Part shown: piece by piece, positions 37,273-59,830 of the stretch | Numbering within the stretch: the first letter of the stretch is position 1 | Layout: each line of letters begins with the position of its first letter | Source of the DNA: Mobula hypostoma | Taxonomy: Eukaryota | Reading direction: 5' to 3' | Assembly: GCF_963921235.1 (NCBI RefSeq) | Contig: NC_086108.1 | Span: 6,820,001 to 6,884,000 of the forward strand | Length of the DNA stretch: 64,000 nucleotides | Program-made: the position numbers and the translations under genes | The notes under the pieces: model-generated | Database searches by the model: none | What the model was told of the DNA's origin: nothing | What the model saw: only the letters and a program-made list of their open reading frames with translations

Positions 37273-39684
37273 GTGAGAAATACTTCAGATTTTATCCACT
37301 TGAGCTCAGATGAAATTAGTAAATTATGGTTTCTGACTTGTGCAAATTTGGCTCCTCTGTTTTCATTCTCTTGTTCCTCTCTCCTCCCAGCTAACTACAA
37401 ATTTAACTTCCTCTTCATTCAGTTACACATTGGATTCTAAACCCACGGGTCCTGCTTGTATTTTGATATTCTATTGAAATCATTCTTTTTTCCTGTATAA
37501 AAGTATTTCAGTTAGAACACATTCAGTACTTGTAGCAGGATGTCCAGTTGGTATGTAACAGTGTCCTCCTTGATCAGTTACTATGTGAGGTATAGTTTTT
37601 TTCATTGACTGAGATGTGGGTTTAATACCTTTCTCCAGTTGCCCTTGCATCATGGGGGGGGGGGGCGCATGGTGCTTGCTTGTTGGTCGAAAGCCTTTTC
37701 TACTGTGCCAGTCATCAGTTGGCCCGTTTGAAGATTGCTGCAACTCTTTCACATTGGTTACCTTGTGTATCTGGTTTCAGGCACCTCGGGGTATAAGAAT
37801 AACAGGTGCAGGAGGCTCGGTCTCTCTCCTTTATCCCCAGGGCCTGCTTCAGGCTGAGTTTGCAACCAGTGCTGAAGAACCATTGGGAAACTATCCTGAA
37901 AATACAGGAGGGCCCACATGCACTCTTAGTGAAGGATCTGTTTGTTGAATGGTTAGTTTTTAATTGTGTAACTTGGGGAGATTTCATGAGGTGCCTGTTG
38001 AGTTTGAAATGTTACTGACTGTTTAGTATCATTGTTTTTGTAATTTAGGGTGGCTTAGATGTTTGGTCGAGTGTTTTACTGTTTGTAAATAAATGGTTAA
38101 TGTGCCAGTTCATAATTAGTGTCTTTTGTCTCACTTCTGTCAAACCCGTGAACCTGCTTCCTCGTACCGCCTGAGAAAGGTTATTGGCAGTTCTCCCGCC
38201 CCCACTAACGTTTTAAGATTTAGGATTTCTGGTGACTAGAGAAATAGAGGTAGTTGAGTGTCCATTGTACTCAATCCTGAAAGGGTTCTGTGGGTAGTGA
38301 TGTTCCCTTGTGCAGTTTGGGGAGAGTTGGAGTCTCAAAGTTCACAGTAAATTTTATTAACAAGGTACGTTATATGTCACCATATACAACTCTGAGATTC
38401 ACTTCCCTGTGGCATACTCAGCAAATCTATAGGGTAGTAACTACAATGGGAATCAATGAAAGATCAACCAGAGTGCAGAAGACAACAAACTGTGCAAATG
38501 CAATATAAATAAATAGCAATAAGTAACGAGAACGAGAGATAATGAGATAAAACGTCCTTAAAGTGAGATCATTGGTTATAGGAACATTTCAATAATGGGA
38601 CAAGTGAGTGTAGTTATCCCCTTTTATTCAAGAGCCTGATGGTTGTGCGGTAGTAACTGTTCTTGATCTTGTTGGTGAGTCTGAGGCTCCGGTATCTTGT
38701 ACCTAATGGCAGCAGCAAGAAGAGAGTATGGCCTGGGTGTAATGATCAGATTGTTTTTCATTCTGGCCTTATGATCCTTTGGCATTAGCATGGATAAGCC
38801 TGATTTGGATGTTTTCTTTTGGAACAACTTACTTACTGCCCATTACGCCACTGGTGTTTAGGGCAGCAGTGAAGGTCCTCCATCTCTGGTGGTGTTCAGG
38901 GCTTCCTTCATCATGTCAGTAACCTCCTCTCAGTTTTCACTACTGTCAGTCACGCAAGTTCCAAGTGGAAACTCAGTAATACCATTGCACTCAGATGTAG
39001 AAGGATTCTTCATTGCTTTTTCCATAACAGTTTTGTTTTTCCAGTCAGGGTTCTTAACCCTGAACTGAACCTCCGAACCTGGAGGACCAGTGGACCATTC
39101 ATAGATTGGCCTCTACCCTTTGACCTGTTTGGCATGGGTGACCCTACCAAGAGTCAAAGCGTAAAGCCCTGACCCCAACCAACATAGTTCTCTGGGCTGT
39201 TGAGGCAAGCAAGCCTACAAACCCTGCGACAAGTTGTGGTCTTGGAGGTTCTTTTGAAACCAGTTAAAGAGGAATTGGTAGAAAGGTGATGTGGAATGAT
39301 GAAGTTCACTGTGACTGTTCAGGAAGGAAGTGAATTAACTGAGGTGTCAGTATTGATGGGGTTGTACTCAAATAAACAAAAGGAAAGTGTTCATCACACC
39401 CATGATTTATGCCAGGCGTTCCCAACCTGGGATCCATGAACCCCTCAGTTAATAGTGTTAGGAAAGTACAGCACAGAAATAGGCCCTTTGGCCCATCTAG
39501 TCTGCACTAAACCATTTAAACTGCCTACTCCCTTCAACTAACAGCAGGACCACGGCCCACTATGCCCCTACCATCCATGTTCTTATCCAAACTTCTCTTC
39601 AATGCTGAAATCGAGCTCTCATGCACCACTTGCATTGGCAACTCGTTCCACTCTCTCACCCCCATCTGAGTGAAGAAGCTTTCC

Positions 39685-44866: not shown

Positions 44867-45014
44867 GATATTAACAACGCCTGGCAAGGTCTGGAGCAGG
44901 CCGAAAAGGGTTACGAGGAGTGGCTACTGAATGAGATCAGGAGGCTGGAAAGACTTGATCATTTGGCAGAGAAATTCAGACAGAAAGCAACCATCCATGA
45001 AGATTGGACCAAAG
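44867..45014 (+). CDS. ACTN4: alpha-actinin-4 exon 11, 148 nt
   Basis: ataaag|GATATT...ACCAAAG|gtgatg; [49 protein letters not shown]. Confidence 0.95.
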
Positions 45015-45454
45015 GTGATGTTCCAACATATTTCAAAAGTAAATTTTATTATCAAAGTACATATATGTCAGCACATACAACCTTGAGGTTCATTTTCCTG
45101 TGGGCATACTCAGCAAATCTATGAAATAGTAACTATAACAGGATCAATGAAAGATCAACCAGTGCAGAAGACAACAAATTGTGCAAATGCAAATATAAAT
45201 AAATAGCAATAAATAATGAGAACATGAGATAAAGAGTCCTTAAAGTGAGATCATTGGTTGTGGGAACATATCAATGATGGGACAAGTGAGTGCAGTTATC
45301 CCCTTTTGTTCGAGAGCCTAATGGTTAAGGGGTATTAACTGTTCTTGAACCTGGTGGTGTGAGTCCTAAGGCTCTTGTACCTTCTACCTGATGGCAGAAG
45401 CGAGAAGAGAGCATGACCTGGGTGGTGGGGATCTCTGATGGTTGCTGCTTTCCT

Positions 45455-47438
45455 TTTTTTTTAATATAATTTTTATTGAGTTTTCAAAGTGATACATGAG
45501 AAAAAAATATCTACCCTCCCCCTCCCCGATATATACTCCTACCTAAAAAGAAAAGGAAAAAAAAGGAACTGCCTGAATATTGGAAGGTTTGCACATGCTC
45601 CATGGGATAAAAATAAATTTAGTATATATTTGTTACTTTCCCCCAAGGAACCAAGATCTTCATCATCGGAGCTATAAATAAGGGCTCCAAATATTCAAAA
45701 ATGTTACAAATTTATCTCTTAAAATCTAAAACATTACTTAGCTTCTCAACTCTGATAGTTCCCTGGGGAATCTCTTTGAACTTCACCATGTTGCTATGTG
45801 TTTCCCTCCCAACCATCCAGGCAAAAAGAAAAAAAAAGATAAGATACAAAAAAAGAAAAAACAAAATACCCCCCCCACTAATGTTGTGAATGAAAATTTA
45901 CACAACACTACCCCCCTCCATTGTGCGGGTCGTGGCTGTTGCCACGTTTGCACACATGAATAACGTAGCAATTGGTCAGTGTTTCTTCCAGCTCCCCCGT
46001 AACAAAAAATTATATATATATAGAAAAAAATTAATGTTATTATTCCCAGCTAATATTCCTCAAATTTTAACCTTTCTTCCCCTCCCTCATATAATTAATA
46101 ATATATTTATATATTCATCTGCCTAAAAATTCAACAGGCCTAATCCTTGATCCAGTCTTCATCTTCAATCCGTCTCGCTCTCCTAAGTTTGTTCTTGTAT
46201 CTGGTGAATATTCAAAGAATCTCGCACAAACTCCTCCGCTTTCCGGTAATCGTCAAAAAATCTTTTTTCTCCACCAGGCAAAAAAATCTTCAAGGTTGCA
46301 GGATAACGCAATATAATTTGATAACCGTGATCCCATAGGGCTTTTTTCACTGGATTAAACTTCTTCCTTCTTTTCAAAAGTTCATAACTTATGTCAGGGT
46401 AGAAAAAAATTTTCTTCCCTTCTATCATTAGTGGCCCTTTTCTCTTCTTGGCAGCTTGGGCAGCCGCCTGTAGAATCCTTTCTTTATCTTGAAATCTTAA
46501 GAATTTTATTAAAATTGATCGTGGATATTGGTCTTCTTGTAGTTTTGGTCTTAGAGCTCTATGTACCCGCTCAATTTCAATTGATCGGTCTTCCTCTTTC
46601 ATTTGCAAGGTTTTCGGGATCCATCTTTGAAAAAATTGTATTGGATTATCTCCCTCTGTACCTTCTTTAAGACCAACAATTTTAATGTTATTACGTCTAC
46701 TAAAATTTTCCAACACGTCCACTTTCTCCAAGAGTCGATTTCTTTCCGTGTTCCAGACAAGCACATTATTTTCTGTTTTTTCCACTCTATCGTTAATATG
46801 CTCCATTGTTCTTTCCATCTTCTGAAGTTTCTTATCCATTTTATCCTGTCTTTTCATAGCTTTATCATAGCACATCTTCACGTCTCTAAGCTCTGTTCTT
46901 AATTTTCTTAGTTCAGCCGTTAATTGCAATAAAGCCTCTCTTATGTCTCCGTCGTCTCCTTTACTTCCAGTCTCTTCCAGTTCTTCCTCCTCCTCTTCAT
47001 CTGTATTCCCTGCGATATCCAATTCTGACTCTGAGTCACTTTCAGTTGCAGTGGCCGTCGGTTCTTGTAGTTTAAATTGTGTCGATTTGCGCATGCGCCT
47101 TTCTGGCATCTTCTTCCGAGAGATCGCTACCGCCGCCATTGCTCCCCGTTCTTCTATGCCAGAGATAAAATGAGTCTCCTCTGAAGGAGATCCAACCTGA
47201 ATCCGAGGCTCCATCGCTGCAGTAGGCACTTTTTTCTTCCCATCTCGCGGCGACTTCACAACAACAGACTTCTTCTGTTGCGGTTTACGAGGCATATCGT
47301 AGAGTAGTCTTACGAAGTTTATAAATAGTTTTCGGAAACTATTTATTAACTTTACTTTGTTTAAATGGTACTTTGCTGATTTTTTACGGGAGAGCTGGAT
47401 TTACACGTCTCAATCCTACGTCATCACGTGACGCCCCC
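45455..47438 (-). mobile_element. Full-length non-autonomous L1 derivative (ORF1-only, half-L1/HAL1-like)
   Basis: 15-bp TSD GGTTGCTGCTTTCCT at 45440-45454 and 47439-47453; GGGGG 5' end; AATAAA plus poly(A) at the 3' end; intact ORF1; only a short ORF2-like C-terminal remnant. Confidence 0.88.
46183..47295 (-). CDS. L1 ORF1p-like RNA-binding protein (coiled coil, RRM, CTD), 370 aa, uninterrupted
   Basis: Coiled-coil-like segment, then ENFSRRNNIKIVGLKEG, IEIERVHR, PRSILIKFL, IFFYPDIS and LRYPATLKI, which are typical vertebrate L1 ORF1 motifs. Confidence 0.9.
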   Translation of the reverse strand: MPRKPQQKKSVVVKSPRDGKKKVPTAAMEPRIQVGSPSEETHFISGIEERGAMAAVAISRKKMPERRMRKSTQFKLQEPTATATESDSESELDIAGNTDEEEEEELEETGSKGDDGDIREALLQLTAELRKLRTELRDVKMCYDKAMKRQDKMDKKLQKMERTMEHINDRVEKTENNVLVWNTERNRLLEKVDVLENFSRRNNIKIVGLKEGTEGDNPIQFFQRWIPKTLQMKEEDRSIEIERVHRALRPKLQEDQYPRSILIKFLRFQDKERILQAAAQAAKKRKGPLMIEGKKIFFYPDISYELLKRRKKFNPVKKALWDHGYQIILRYPATLKIFLPGGEKRFFDDYRKAEEFVRDSLNIHQIQEQT

Positions 47439-50400
47439 GGTTGCTGCTTTCCTGTGACAGCTTTCATGCAGATATGCTCCATGGTTGTGAGGGTCTGGGC
47501 CAAGTCCACTACCCTTTTGTATAGCAGTCTGCAGGTTTAAAGTGATCACCTCATGCAGAGTTTGTACACAAGGTGTTAATCAAAAACTACTTGTCTACCA
47601 ACTGGAAAACTGTAAAATTGATGACTTTGTGGTTGCAAGCCAGCCCAATGGTGCATATTTTGCTAGGTCATCCTCAGTTAAAAACATAACTGACACTTGA
47701 AGCCCAAGTCTGTTTTTCTCTCAGTTAGATTTGCAATGGGGTCCATAATCAAATTGTCCAGTGGTTCTCTACTGGAAACAATCTCAGCTACCAAACAGTA
47801 AACACTGTAATTAACGATGTGACAGTTTCTGATGTTGAGTGAGACCACCTGTACACAGGGAATGGGAACAACTGATCTGTGATCCTCAGTGTAAACTTAA
47901 AATTTCCATGGTAACAATGGGGAAAATGACACTGAATCAGAACCAGGTTTAATATCACCGGCATATGTTGTGAAATTTGTTGTCTTTGTGGCAGCAGTAC
48001 AATGCAATACATAATAATAGAGGAAAAAATGAATTTCAGTATGAATAAATATTAAATAGTTAAATAAGTAGTGGAAAAAAAGTAGTATGGTCGTGTTCGT
48101 GAGTTCAATGTTCATTCAGAAATTGGATGGCAGAGGGGAAGGAGCTGTTCCTGAATCGTTGAGTTTGTGTCTTCAGGCTCCTGTCCTCCTCCCTGATGGT
48201 AGCAATGAGTACAAAGCATGTCCTGGGTGATGGGGGTCCTTAATGATGGATGCTGTCTCTTTGAGGGAACGCTCCTTGAAGAAGTCTTGCATACTACAGG
48301 GGCTAATGCCTACAATGGAACTGACTTGAGTTTACAACTTCCGGTAGCTTCGTTTAGTCCTGTGCATTAGGCCCCCCTCCCCCCCATACTGGACCATGAT
48401 GCATCTTGTCAGAATACTACCACGGTACATCAGTAGAAATTATCAAGTTATTTTGCTGACGTATCAAATCTCCTCAAACTCCTAATGAAATATAGCCACT
48501 GTCTAGTGCTTTATCTGATATTACAAGTAAATGAATAGTTTCCACAAGAATTGATCTGGAAATCAATTGCTTCATGTTTTGGGAATTATCCCATTGTTTG
48601 ATTAGAAAGCGATGGTATACTGTTGAGCAGATTAATGTATTTTTTTTGTATATATTTATCACACTAGCTATTCTAATATGTCAGGATTCTTGTCTCTTAA
48701 ATGACGGTTTTGCAGTTTCATGCAGGTTGCAATTAGCATTTTGCATTCCTATAAACCTAGTAATTTTCAGAAGGTAAGATTTTAATGCTACAAATATCAA
48801 CTCAGCTACATCAATTTCTTTAACTTCCAGCAATTTTCTATTTTTTCCATTCCCCATTCCGGTTCCGTTCTATCTCTTCTCTCCTGAGCATTACCTCTGT
48901 CTGGTTCCACTTCACATTTCCTTCTCCCATGGTCCACTGTCATCTCCTATTAGATTCCTTCTCCTTCAGCCCTTTACCTATTCCACCTATCATCTCCTAG
49001 CAGCTTCTTACTTCACCACCCCACCCCCACCAACCTGGTCTCACCTATCACCTGCCAGCTTGTACTCTTTTTTGCCCCCCCCCCACCACCCCTGTCTCAT
49101 TCTGTCTTCTGCCCCCAACCTTTCCAGTCATGATGAAGGATCTTGGCCTGTTTATTCCTTTCCATAGATGCTGCCTGTTCTCTGAGTTCCTCTAGCCTTT
49201 TGTGTGGTTTACTTAAGATTTTTGGTTTTGGTAAAATGCAAAAAAAAATCTAGATGTTGGAAATCTGAAATAGGGAGTTCAGTAAGTCTGGCAGCACCGT
49301 GGAAGAGAAGCAGTTAATGACCCTCTGAGGACTGGGAAAGGAAACAAGTTGTCTGAAGGGTGGGTGATGTTCAGTAGACTAAAGGCAAGGTCTGGGTTAT
49401 GATGAGGATAAGTTGCAGACAAGGCCATCCATTTCCAGTTTAATTGCCATTCAGCTCAACAGTTTGTGTGCAGTCTGTTGTTGAAGTCGTCAATCCCTAG
49501 TGCATTTATTTTACAATCTTTGAACTCACCACTGGATTCTCTGACATACCCAGTCTCCTCCATTATTTGCATGTCCCTGAGCATTTGCTTCCAGCTTCTG
49601 TCCCACCGAGGATGACGAGTCCTTAATTACCTCAGCAAAATTAACCTCCCATTGAAGATTCACCTTCCGCTTCCCTACTTGTAGCAGCTTCCAGAAATAT
49701 TTTTACTTCAACCAATTTCTTGATATAATTGCTGTGACGTAAATCAGGCCCGAAGGTGAAAGAACTCTTCACTGAGCTGAACAAAACCTCATGACTTCGA
49801 GGGATTCGGGCTAGCTAATAGCTTGCTTCCCGTTCTTGCTCTGGTTTCATTTCAGACCTAAAGACTTGCTGATGAGTTGGTTAATTGGCCACTCTGGATT
49901 GTTCCAAGTGTGTGTGGTGGAGAGGGTTTTGACAATGGGGAAAAGTGGCAAAATTAGGTCACAGGGCCATATTTTTGGGTGGGGCGGGCGTATGAAATTG
50001 CTCTGAGAATTCACATTGATTGGATGGGTCAGATGGCAAACTATGTTGTTGGTAAATACAGACTGTCAGTGGTGAGGAAATCAGCTCTTGCCAGTTTGGC
50101 CATATCCAGAAATATTAGTACAGAGTTCAAAGTAAATTTTATTAACAAATTACATATATGTCACCATATACAACCCTGAGATTAATTTTCCTGCGGACAT
50201 GCTCAGCAAATCTATAGAACAGTAGCTATAACAGGATCACTGAAAGATCAACTGGAATGTGGAAGACAAGAAACTGTGCAAATGCAAATGTAAGTTGCAA
50301 TAAATAATGTGAATGTGAGATGATGAGATGGGGTATAAGTAGGAGTATTAACTTGAATTTTATTTCCTGTTACAAGATTACACACTCTAAATGATATCCA

Positions 50401-54285: not shown

Positions 54286-55682
54286 TTGATCCTTTTAAAG
54301 AGTCCGAGCTAAAAGCAAATACAAAATTTAGACATGAACATTGTTTACTTCATTTAGTAGTGTGCAGAAATTCCCACGCACCTCAATAGCTTGTGGTTGT
54401 GGTAATGTTGATTAAGCTACAGGCACTAATTTACAACAGTGTCTGGTGCTCTTCTCAACACACATTTAAGGATGGGTCTAAACTTCACAGTGCAAAGTAA
54501 TTGTGTAGTGTCGCTGTTGCACTATCAAGTCATTAGAATAAACATAAAGAAGAACCTCTAATGTGAGCTTTCTCCTCAGGAATGTCCATATCTGAAGCTG
54601 TTGCACTCTGGAAACTTTGTTGAAGTTAATGGAATGTTGTCGTCTTCAAAGCAATTGCCTTTTGCTAACTTTCAGGTTCATATAGGTGGGAATAGGAGTG
54701 TTTGAAAATGGTGTCAGTGACGATCCAATCCATCTATTACTAAGGACGCTCTTCTAGATGTAATGACATGGGGTTGTTTCCCTCTACCTTTGAGCAGGCT
54801 GTGCCTTGTCACTCTCTCACCCAGAAGATGACACTTCTGGCAATGCAGCACTGCACTGGCCAGCTGGGTTTCTTGTGCTCATGTCTATAATGAGATTTAG
54901 AACTTTGGATTGCATTTGTCTTGAAGTTTCCAGGAGGTGAGTGGCCTCAAGGCGAAAAAGTTTAGAGGTCATGATTGTCTGCATTTCTCGACTATTTAAG
55001 GATGGAGGAAGATTCAAACATCGAGATGAATGTGGCAGGCGAGCGAGTGTTCAGTGCTGACTACCAGCTTCTTACTCACTGCTGCCAGAGGTGGTGCCTG
55101 CATGTGACAGAACTCTCGCTCGCTGCTCCCACGGGAAGGCCTCTGTGTTCAGATGGTTCCACTCTCCTGCAATGCTTCTGGAGGGTGTTATCGAGGTTCT
55201 GCATCTATAATTTATGGAATTCAAATTGGACTCTTTCAGATGGATGATTTTTTTTGCATGGGGGTGGGTGGTTTGATATTCTTATTTCTATTCATCTTTT
55301 TTTGTGCATGGAGTGGGGGAGATTGTTGGCTTTCTTTGAATGGCCTCCATGGTTTTCTTAGTTTCTTGGCTGCCTGGAGAAGATTAATCTCAGAGTTATA
55401 TACTGCATTCATTGTTGCTATTCCTCTCCATGCCTTGTGACGCACCAGGCGGCAACCTTGCTGTTTCTTCACCATTTTGTCTGTGTTTTACGAGGCTGAG
55501 TTGTGAGCTCGATGCTGGATTCAAATGGGACAACTCACCTCCAAGTCCGGTGCTGATGCTGTTACATCACCAGCCGGCTTATTCTGTGTACATACTTTGA
55601 TAATAAATGGACCTTAAACCAGGCTACAGCTGACACTTGACCAGTGCCTTTGCTTGATGCTTAGATGGAAAAGTGAAGTTAA

Positions 55683-55865
<183 letters not shown>

Positions 55866-56227: not shown

Positions 56228-58057
56228 GTGAGACCTAAACTGCTGACTTTTATCTTGTAGTGGATTTAATGTGTGGGGTTAATTCCATTTCTGCAGTCAC
56301 AAAAGGAATCTTAATTCTGGATTCCCTACATAATTGTCATTTAATAGAATCAAAGTATTATAGAAAAGTACAGCACAGAAAAAGGCCCTTCAGCCCATCT
56401 AGTCCATGCCAAACTGCCTACTGCCATCAACCTGTGCCATACCCATATCCCTACCATCCATGTACCTATCTAAACTTCACCTAATTTGAAATCGAGCTGG
56501 CATGTACCACTTGTGCTGGCAACTTGTTCCAAACGCTCACCACCCTCTGAGTGAAGAAGTCCATCTCCCCCCCACCACCCCCATGTTCCCCTTAAGCTTT
56601 TCACCTTTCATCCTTACCCCATGATCTCTGGTTGTTGTCCCACCCAACTTCAGTGTGAAATTGCATTTACCCTAACTATACCCCTCATAACTTTGTATAC
56701 TTCTATCCAATCTCCTTTCAATCTTCTATCCAATCTCCTTTCAATCTTCTACGTTCTAAGGAATAAAGTCCTAACCTATTCAGTCTTTCTTTATAACTCG
56801 GGTCCTCCAGACCCAGCAACATTCTTGTAAATTTTCCCTGTACTCTTTCAAGCTTATTGACATCTTTCCTGTAGGCAGGTGACTCACTGAGATGGCAGCA
56901 TCAGACTAGCTTCAAGTAAACAATAAATATTGAGAACATGAGATGGAGAGTACTTAAAATTGGTCGTGGGGACATTTCAATGATGGACCAAGTGAAGATG
57001 AGTGAAGTTATCCCCTTTGGTTCAGGAGCCTGATGGTTGAGGGGTAATAAGTGTTCCTGAACCTGGTGGCGTGAGGCTCCTGTACCTTCTTCCAGAAGGC
57101 AACAGCAAGAAGAGAGTGTGACCTGGGTGGTGAGGGTCTGTGATGGTAGATGCTGCTTTCCTGCAACAGCGTTTCATGTAAATTATTCAGTGGTGAGAAG
57201 AGCCTTACCCATGATGGACTGAGCTGTATCCACTACTTTTTTTTTACATTTTACATTCAGGAGACATTTGTGCTCAATGGTGGAAAGGACTTTACCTGTA
57301 ATGGACTGAGTCGTATCCACTACTTTTTGTAGTATTTTCCACTCAAGGGCATTGGTGTTTCCATACCAGGCTGTATTTGAATAGTGTCTGAAGCTATTTA
57401 ATTTAAGATGCGTGTACTGAAAGAATTAAATTGTAATTGCTACTGTAAACTACAACATGTTTGGAAAATCCATTATGTTGCTTAATTGTGATTCTGTAGG
57501 TGTTTTACTTGACTGCGCGTGGACCAGGCAGTAATGGCCGAGTTCTATCTGATGCAGCAATATCACTGCAAAACGCTAATTCCAAGTTCCAGCAGGATTT
57601 AGCCAAACTCTTCCTATTTGATACCCTTCATTCTGTTGATTATGAGTACTTAGGTGATTAGAGTCTTGTGATGTGTTTGAGTCCTGGCTCTGCAATGATC
57701 CCAGAGAAAATGGAATCACTCAGTGACCACCCATTTCAATTCTACTTCCTATTGTTATTCTGACATGTCAGCCCACGGCTTCCTCTAGTGCCATGATGAA
57801 GCCACACTCGGGTTGGAGGATAAACACCTTGTATAGCCTCTAACCTGATGACATGAACGTCGATTTTTTTGAACTTCCCGTAACTGCCCCCCCCCGCACT
57901 TTCACCATTCCCTCTCTCATCTTATCTCCTTACCTGCCCATCATCTCCCTCCTCTCCCTTCCCTTGCTTCCATGGTTTTCTCTTCTCTCCAATCAGATTC
58001 CGCCCTTCTCCAGCCCTTTATCTCTCTCACCAATCAACTTCCCAGCTCTTTACTTCA

Positions 58058-58312
58058 CCCCTTCCCCCATCACCCACCACCCTTTACTTCTTCCTCCCCT
58101 CCCCTCCCCACCTTCTTACCTTGACTCCTATCTTTCTCCACTCCCCTTCCCCCATCACCCACCACCCTTTACTTCTTCCTCCCCTCCCCTCCCCACCTTC
58201 TTACCTTGACTCCTATCTTTCTCCACTCCCCTTCCCCCATCACCCACCACCCTTTACTTCTTCCTCCCCTCCCCTCCCCACCTTCTTACCTTGACTCCTA
58301 TCTTTCTCCACT
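58058..58312 (+). repeat. Perfect 85-bp tandem triplication (pyrimidine-rich)
   Basis: cttcccccatcaccc recurs at 58061, 58146 and 58231 with identical units. Confidence 0.9.
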
Positions 58313-58606: not shown

Positions 58607-58624
58607 TAGTTTAAACAGTGGCTT

Positions 58625-59830
58625 GTGTCAGAATCAGATCTGGTATCACTGGCATATGTCTTGAACTTTATTATTTTGCAGCTGTGGTGCAGTGTAATAC
58701 ATAGTAAAGCACTGGAAATTAAATTGAATAAAGTAGTGCAAAAAGAAGCCGTACAAAAATACTGAGGGAGTGTACATGAGTTCATTGTCCATTCTGAAAT
58801 CTGACGAGGGAAGAAGCTGTTCCTAAAATGTAGTGTGTGTGTGTGTGTCTTTGGGCTCCTGTACCACCACCCTGATGGTAGCAATGAGGAGGAGGAATCC
58901 CCAGGGTGATGGGAGTCCTTAATGATCAATGCCACCTTTTTGAGGCATCGCCTTTTGAAAGTGTCCTTGGTGCTGGGGACGATAGTGCCCGTGATATTTC
59001 TGGCTGAGTTTACAACTTCCTGCATATTTTCCCGATCATGTGTAGTGGCCCCCCACCCCCGGTACCACCAGACGGTCAAGCAACCAGTTAGAATACTCTG
59101 CACAGTATATCTGTAGATATTTGCTTCGGTGACATACCAAGTCTCCTCAAACTTCTAATGAAGCATAGCTGCTGTTGTGCCTTCTTTGTAGCTGCATCAA
59201 AGTTCAAAGTAATTTTTATCAGAGTACGTGTATGTCACCATGTACCCTAAGATTCATTTTCCTGCAGGCATACTCGACAAATCTATAGAACAGTAACCAT
59301 AACAAGATCAATGAAAGATCAACCAGAGTGCAGAAAACAACAAACTGTGCAAATGCAACTATAGATAAACAGCAATAAATAACAAAAACATGAGGTAATG
59401 AGATGGTCTTTAAAGTGAGATCATTGGTTGTGAGAACATCTCAGTGGATGGACAGTTGAGTGTAGTTACCCCTTTTGTTTGAGAGCCTGATGGTAGAGGG
59501 GTATTAATTGTTCCTGACCTGGTGGTGTAAGTCCTGAGGCTCTTGTACCTTCTACCTGATGAGAAGGGAGTATGGCCTGGATAGTGGCGATCTTTGATGA
59601 TAGATGCTGCTTTCCTACAACAGCGTTTCATGTAGATGTGCTCAATGTTTGGGAGGGCTTTACCTGTGATGTATTGAGCTGAGTCCACTACCTTTTGTAG
59701 GATTCCCCATTCAAAGATATTGGTGTTTCCATACCAGGCTGTGATGCAGCCAGTCAATACACTCTCCAGTACATGCCTATAGAAGTTTGTCAAAGTTTTT
59801 TGATGTCTGCTGAATCTCTGCAGACTCCTA
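58625..59830 (-). mobile_element. L2-type LINE 3' fragments (two)
   Basis: ESVLTGCITAWYG...RCCRKAASIIKD.H.PGH; similar copies at 16000-16520, 47935-48515 and 62215-62650. Confidence 0.8.

Follow-up and report, generated by a model that had tools for sequence, protein, structure and literature searches.

An ORF1-only, HAL1-like L1 element in the ray Mobula hypostoma that probably belongs to an independently derived family

Introduction

Half-L1 (HAL1) elements are non-autonomous L1 derivatives that code only for ORF1p, the product of the first open reading frame (ORF), and are described as having several independent origins in mammals (PMC5753468), where they can be highly abundant, as in the repeat clusters of bats (PMC3342881). 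In other clades of long interspersed elements (LINEs), HeT-A (Jockey clade) and Ag-Sponge (CR1 clade) are bipartite non-autonomous elements in which ORF1 is present and whose protein is thought to multimerise with that of the partner (PMC5786205). Here we describe an L1 element on the minus strand of a 64,000-nt stretch of the Mobula hypostoma genome (NC_086108.1, positions 6,820,001 to 6,884,000; hereafter the window), which has an open ORF1, lacks nearly all of ORF2 and is best read as a member of a HAL1-like family mobilised in trans, a reading that we hold with good though not complete confidence.

Results

The element occupies 45455-47438 (1,984 bp) between exact 15-bp direct repeats, with the following parts.

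47439..47453, minus strand: target-site duplication (TSD), 5' copy, 15 bp, exact; target word single in paralogous host repeats
47296..47438, minus strand: 5' untranslated region (UTR), 143 nt, 8 CpG, presumed internal promoter
46183..47295, minus strand: L1 ORF1, 370 aa, with acidic N-terminus, coiled coil, RRM and C-terminal domain (CTD); open, with private substitutions
46165..46182, minus strand: five extra in-frame codons and a second stop, matching the C-terminal tail of the ORF1 relatives P0001 and P0002
45723..46182, minus strand: retained inter-ORF spacer (intergenic region), 460 nt, G and T tracts
45723..45730, minus strand: approximate deletion junction, spacer to ORF2 end; the remnant frame opens at 45725 and one public contig (X5 record 22) bridges it
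45672..45722, minus strand: ORF2 remnant, the final 16 codons of L1 ORF2 with their stop
45463..45671, minus strand: 3'UTR, 209 nt, AATAAA at 45472-45477
45455..45462, minus strand: poly(A), 8 nt
45440..45454, minus strand: TSD, 3' copy, exact 15-bp repeat

The 15-bp repeat is the sole word of at least 8 nt common to both element ends and has two occurrences in the window (45440-45454 and 47439-47453). Public contigs from four of the 24 listed runs were aligned to 44950-47950: X1 and X6 from organism A (sample S1 for X1 and sample S3 for X6, the latter perhaps an RNA run), X5 from organism B, and X13, which has no coverage of the unique flank. The target word occurs once in each of the two paralogues of the host repeat that span the site (57105-57215 and 59560-59670), and all four runs have it once in their loose-end consensus at 45440, so that the repeat is a true target-site duplication. 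The 5' end begins GGGGG, its first eight bases are identical to those that open the 5' consensus of frog L1, and the length and CpG count of the 5'UTR agree with what is given for non-mammalian L1 (PMC5381506); the 5' end is therefore complete. This is the layout that an earlier note had read from the letters of the window (15-bp TSD, GGGGG-initiated 143-nt 5'UTR, 370-aa ORF1, spacer of ~460 nt, short peptide, 3'UTR, AATAAA and poly(A)), and it stands with two qualifications, namely that the poly(A) has merely 8 nt and that ORF1 stops six codons earlier than in P0001 and P0002, its two closest full-length relatives.

Shortly ahead of the ORF1 start, the 5'UTR has a near-palindrome of 38 nt at 47315-47352 that is 89% self-complementary. 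Short palindromes, which we take to be CRE- and E-box-like, also occur within its first 35 nt.

The peptide encoded at 45672-45722 shares its L/F/W/P spacing with the last motif of fish L1 ORF2s. For comparison there were 28 distant L1-type loci, of which five have an entire ORF2, amounting to three distinct proteins, and a sixth has a broken one, and a 16-mer motif score was built from L001, L003 and L009, leaving out L005, which has no W-x-P motif. When the post-ORF1 segment was shuffled 400 times, no shuffle scored as high as the peptide, which ranks second among the 57,499 16-mers of the window. Against a 13-row hidden Markov model (HMM) of the ORF2 C-terminus, 11 rows of which came from a search whose profile contained the tested peptide, it ranks first of 3,683 peptides, yet with an E-value of 0.41. 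We call it an ORF2 remnant because motif, place just before the 3'UTR and terminal stop are taken together; the assignment is well supported by this combination and weak by E-value alone. The likeness to the extreme C-terminus of non-mammalian L1 ORF2, which the earlier note had pointed out, is upheld by motif spacing, shuffles and rank, and so is its statement that endonuclease and reverse transcriptase (RT) are absent, as tblastn of four fish ORF2s against the element gave nothing better than E 0.05. The 16-mer at 55382, which has the top score in the window, was taken as chance (no L1 context among what was checked; far from the head of the HMM ranking, with E 8.3).

In three fish loci the inter-ORF spacer measures 322-455 nt, and the range given for L1 is 257-1,032 bp (PMC5381506); the spacer of the ray element is an ordinary inter-ORF region. 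The deletion thus began near the start of ORF2 and spared only the last 16 codons, and ORF2 may have been removed by splicing or by a template jump.

Seventeen relatives of ORF1 were found among 2,992 candidates, the closest in Mobula, Hemitrygon and Hypanus. These nearest ORF1s are ~40-90% identical to it and human ORF1p is reached by profile only: a profile of ORF1 and 14 relatives matches human LINE-1 ORF1p (PDB 2yko) with E 7.5e-24 across coiled coil, RRM and CTD, and Pfam alone gave a sub-threshold match to Tnp_22_dsRBD (E 0.031). In a tree of 23 rows, among which there were no mammalian HAL1 sequences, ORF1 clusters with two Mobula hypostoma proteins with full support, which points to a myliobatiform ray as host. 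Because it nests among ray L1 ORF1s, its origin is separate from that of mammalian HAL1: ORF1 is not descended from mammalian L1 or HAL1, and the element was derived independently. At residues 64-70 a six-residue repeated unit of P0002 and P0003 is missing here and in P0001 (an in-frame indel).

ORF1s of the same L1 lineage also sit within ray host gene models (P0001, P0004, P0005 and P0162), the names of these models being transcriptional adapter 1, RING/B-box protein, tRNA adenosine deaminase 1 and mitochondrial elongation factor isoforms; they are either exonised intronic copies or annotation artefacts. Elsewhere in the window, 836-919 has weak similarity to ORF1 (DNA E 0.003, protein E 0.99), and its translation gave no clear L1 frame.

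The unique right flank is single-copy, with a depth of 14.1 in X1 and 45.5 in X5, and all 19 bins of the element are deeper (670-2,570x the flank in X1 and 460-2,290x in X5, median about 1,000-1,200x). A family of 6-kb L1s with 5' truncation is expected to show an excess of depth towards the 3' end; the ratio of 3' end to ORF1 is 1.0 in X1 and 0.6 in X5, that is, there is no such excess. Summed contig depth is not copy number and, by the stated caveat of the measure, cannot rank parts of a gene, and the depth is taken only as indicating a highly repeated element without 3' excess.

More direct evidence that the deleted form exists elsewhere comes from X5 record 22, a contig of 242 nt from organism B that aligns end to end over 45676-45911 and crosses the spacer/remnant junction, beyond which it reaches 46 nt in the 3' direction, where at least 31 letters on each side were demanded for bridging. 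Relative to the element, 18 substitutions and 8 gap letters were counted, a divergence of 7.6% as against 2.4% for the orthologous flank, and an orthologue would have about 5.7 substitutions (Poisson P 3e-5). Because the substitutions far exceed the orthologue expectation, the contig represents a sister copy with the same deletion, and the deletion is probably not private to the present locus. The deleted form is therefore multi-copy on minimal evidence, that of one diverged sister contig. The loose-end tables are dominated by the host repeat and carry no information on this junction. X5 also has a second ORF2-less join, in which the end of the spacer (45724) meets the 3'UTR (45658), with depth 90 (side lengths not stated).

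The stretch between these two points (45659-45723), which holds the ORF2 remnant, gives way in this sister form of organism B to 12 letters that look like the beginning of the 3'UTR; a short GAT microhomology may have led to a secondary deletion there. In X6, records 28, 30 and 31 are long contigs over 45860-47051, ~83-87% identical to the element with depths of 70-220, and this diverged subfamily could include an autonomous partner.

As for the age of the present copy, three contigs (X1 record 8, X6 record 32 and X5 record 24) start in the unique flank, cross the TSD and enter the element for 30-31 nt; only the last satisfies the bridging rule, those of X1 and X6 being one letter short but exact. 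The two from organism A show no differences, whereas over 543 nt that from organism B differs by 13 substitutions and 15 gap letters. The filled site is thus present in all three runs that cover the unique flank, including one from a second species, and because it is common to both organisms the insertion predates the split of A and B (2.4% flank divergence). No flank contig breaks at the TSD, which suggests that there is no empty allele in these samples, within the limit that assembled contigs drop rare variants. Joints from 45422-45440 to 47442 were considered as an empty allele and rejected, since their short side measures 18-29 nt and the paralogous host repeats account for them.

The copy has also changed since insertion. 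The difference table of the aligned region has 406 rows, of which 40 are displayed, 30 of them inside the element, and among these 30 at least nine substitutions are private to the copy (another base in at least 96% of depth in both DNA runs). The private changes in ORF1, five nonsynonymous and two synonymous, match neutrality (expectation 0.74 nonsynonymous), and the copy is read as decaying neutrally. The CpG observed/expected ratio is 0.89 in ORF1 and 0.32 in the window. By simple arithmetic, with each copy changed by 1.2%, two 15-bp TSDs would still be identical in about 70% of cases, so that identical TSDs date little, and together with the high CpG content they are compatible with about 1% decay. 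Given the slow evolution of elasmobranchs, the age of the insertion is probably to be counted in millions of years. About 20 million years between two mobulid species, not necessarily A and B, is cited in a mobulid genome preprint, and the rate of 7e-10 per site per generation for the epaulette shark (PMC10587355) was set aside for dating, as the age would become implausibly old. In sum, the copy appears to be an old, fixed and decaying insertion common to two species.

The element lies antisense in an intron of an alpha-actinin gene and has split an older repeat there.

44867..45013, plus strand: alpha-actinin exon upstream of the host intron (PDB actinin, E 7.8e-25)
55713..55856, plus strand: next alpha-actinin (spectrin-repeat) exon
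45040..45454, resuming to about 47495, minus strand: host repeat, split by the element; an older LINE fragment of very high copy number, represented by its 3' part

The host LINE fragment reaches a depth of about 6e5-1e6 in X1 and has four paralogues in the window. The five window copies of this abundant 3' fragment (45040-45454, 38348-38739, 50133-50327, 56921-57162 and 59213-59616) end in short tandem repeats, and their summed X1 depth is up to about 75,000x that of the unique flank. A Pfam search on the fragment was negative, and a similar open frame at 58609-59025 gave a weak PF09004 lead (Atlas); presumably the fragment is Rex1/Babar-like. Three perfect pyrimidine-rich tandem copies of 85 bp lie at 58058-58312.

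Discussion

The structural features by which a HAL1 is recognised (an L1 ORF1p, absence of ORF2, both L1 ends, TSD and poly(A)) are all found in the ray element, and the ORF2 with endonuclease and RT of an autonomous L1 is not. Several observations weigh against reading it as one of a family of ORF1-only elements. Only one bridging sister contig is seen among the 32 contig pieces displayed, beyond which there are a further 139,574, and the flanks and TSD of the sister lie outside that contig. Contigs of copies bearing ORF2 would reach the junction from either side when aligned, so that an undipped junction bin proves little. Neither a ray ORF2 nor an ORF1-ORF2 fusion was present among 4,826 longer candidates, and the 11 matches of a 3-row ORF2 C-terminal profile among 29 candidates resemble two fish rows, with none named as ray. 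Selection on ORF1 in the deleted lineage could be judged from only the 13 displayed differences that were classified. The autonomous partner was not among the 28 DNA loci (metagenomes, 24-42% identity, none close) in collections that barely contain ray DNA, nor in any of 23 stretches of viral or 102 stretches of prokaryote contigs.

One alternative is that of a solitary damaged L1, in which a full-length copy lost ORF2 once, at reverse transcription or after insertion, and the depth comes from sisters that bear ORF2. The TSD and two intact ends would also fit this, and the sister flanks are outside the contigs seen, but the same junction in X5 record 22, at 7.6% divergence as against 2.4% for the orthologous flank, and the depth without 3' excess make it improbable. 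An assembly collapse that deleted ORF2 is the least credible of the explanations: among the pieces displayed no contig of organism A spans the junction with 31 nt on each side, yet an independent short-read assembly of the other species has the same junction. Hardly more can be said for a very young, possibly polymorphic insertion from an active source, for which the identical TSDs, the CpG ratio of ORF1 relative to the window and the open frame would speak. Of the 69,310 contigs aligned in X1, 3,828 are at least 99% alike, though most aligned contigs belong to the host repeat. The filled site in all three covering runs, one of them from a second species whose contig differs at 13 of 543 positions, the contigs unbroken at the TSD, unlike what an empty allele would give, the nine or more private substitutions and the short A8 tail contradict this reading for the present copy; other copies may be active.

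A different question is whether ORF1 matters to an element that did multiply in its deleted form, or is a mere passenger of a bipartite element resembling short interspersed elements (SINEs), with both proteins supplied in trans and possibly forming a minor branch of a mostly autonomous family. The private changes of this copy look neutral, its ORF1 stops six codons early, and ORF2p alone can mobilise SINEs (PMC5203782). Neutral decay after insertion is, however, expected of any copy, and the 1.1-kb frame remains open. The displayed family-level ORF1 variants, which a part of the copies share, are synonymous at 46186, 46431, 46588 and 47104 and nonsynonymous at 46565 and 46599, in a small and selected sample. 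We regard the passenger as unlikely, while giving it appreciable weight. An ORF1-only, HAL1-like family of myliobatiform rays mobilised in trans remains the best reading. Of the family proposed in the earlier note, the internal deletion, the ORF1-only state, the independent origin and a junction not unique to this locus have held up (that note had named a junction unique to the locus as the contrary case, and record 22 carries it elsewhere), while its ORF1p in cis and borrowed ORF2p in trans stay an inference; its description as young, possibly active or polymorphic has not, in view of the filled site in two species, the diverged flank and the private substitutions.

The history of such a family can be sketched as follows. 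An ancestral ray L1 would have lost nearly all of ORF2, from the spacer end to the last 16 codons, the extent being that shown by the anatomy, and the resulting 2-kb derivative would have retained promoter, ORF1, 3'UTR and polyadenylation signal. Its RNA would be transcribed from the 5'UTR and, by the precedent of HAL1, probably packaged in cis by its own ORF1p, while ORF2p would be supplied in trans by an autonomous L1, because the element encodes no enzyme. Insertion would proceed by target-primed reverse transcription at a purine-rich site, as the observed TSD and poly(A) suggest. One sister junction has been observed to attest spread to more than one locus, and judging by the depth the copies would number from some hundreds up to about a thousand. 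So short an element could mostly be inserted in full, in line with the flat depth, and the present copy would have inserted before the split of A and B and then decayed neutrally.

With mammalian HAL1 (human HAL1, HAL1B and HAL1M8, bat HAL1-1A_ML) the element has in common that it is a non-autonomous L1 derivative with ORF1p only, but it belongs to a cartilaginous fish and has a separate origin, and its 143-nt 5'UTR, the long spacer of non-mammalian type and the 16 codons left of ORF2 set it apart. HAL1s of plants were reportedly also described by Bao and Jurka in 2010. With HeT-A and Ag-Sponge it shares an ORF1-bearing 5' part joined to a 3' end via internal deletion; these are from other LINE clades and hosts, and the ray element gives no sign of a telomeric role. 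Autonomous fish- and frog-type L1s (PMC5381506; L001, L003 and L005) resemble it in the short 5'UTR, the G-initiated 5' end, the type II ORF1, the long spacer, AATAAA and poly(A), whereas they have an ORF2 of 1,278-1,298 aa (with endonuclease and RT in L001 and L003), of which the ray element has only the end. In titles and the opening parts of abstracts we found no HAL1-type element of sharks or rays, a search whose scope did not include Repbase and Dfam, where an entry may exist, and the word HAL1 is absent from two L1 surveys and from the main text of the mobulid genome preprint. The ray family is thus probably an undescribed, independently derived half-L1 family of the already known HAL1 kind.

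It is tempting to go further and propose that in mobulids the ORF1-only form dominates its L1 lineage, with ~1,000 mostly full-length 2-kb copies that outnumber the autonomous helper, ORF1 under purifying selection since before the species split, and more than one deletion junction at the spacer end, a proposal that we doubt slightly more than we believe. If true, a non-mammalian vertebrate would for the first time be known to have a high-copy HAL1 system, one that offers a natural test of the need for ORF1p in cis. HAL1-type elements are natural evidence that L1 RNA profits from its own ORF1p while borrowing ORF2p, and an independent origin in cartilaginous fish would make such parasitism on L1 general in vertebrates and not specific to mammals. 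For annotation, it matters that ray proteomes contain host gene models into which ORF1s of this lineage have been spliced. Insertions common to species, like the present copy, are usable as phylogenetic markers, and the ray family would offer many copies, all decaying slowly, in which selection on ORF1 in the absence of ORF2 can be gauged.

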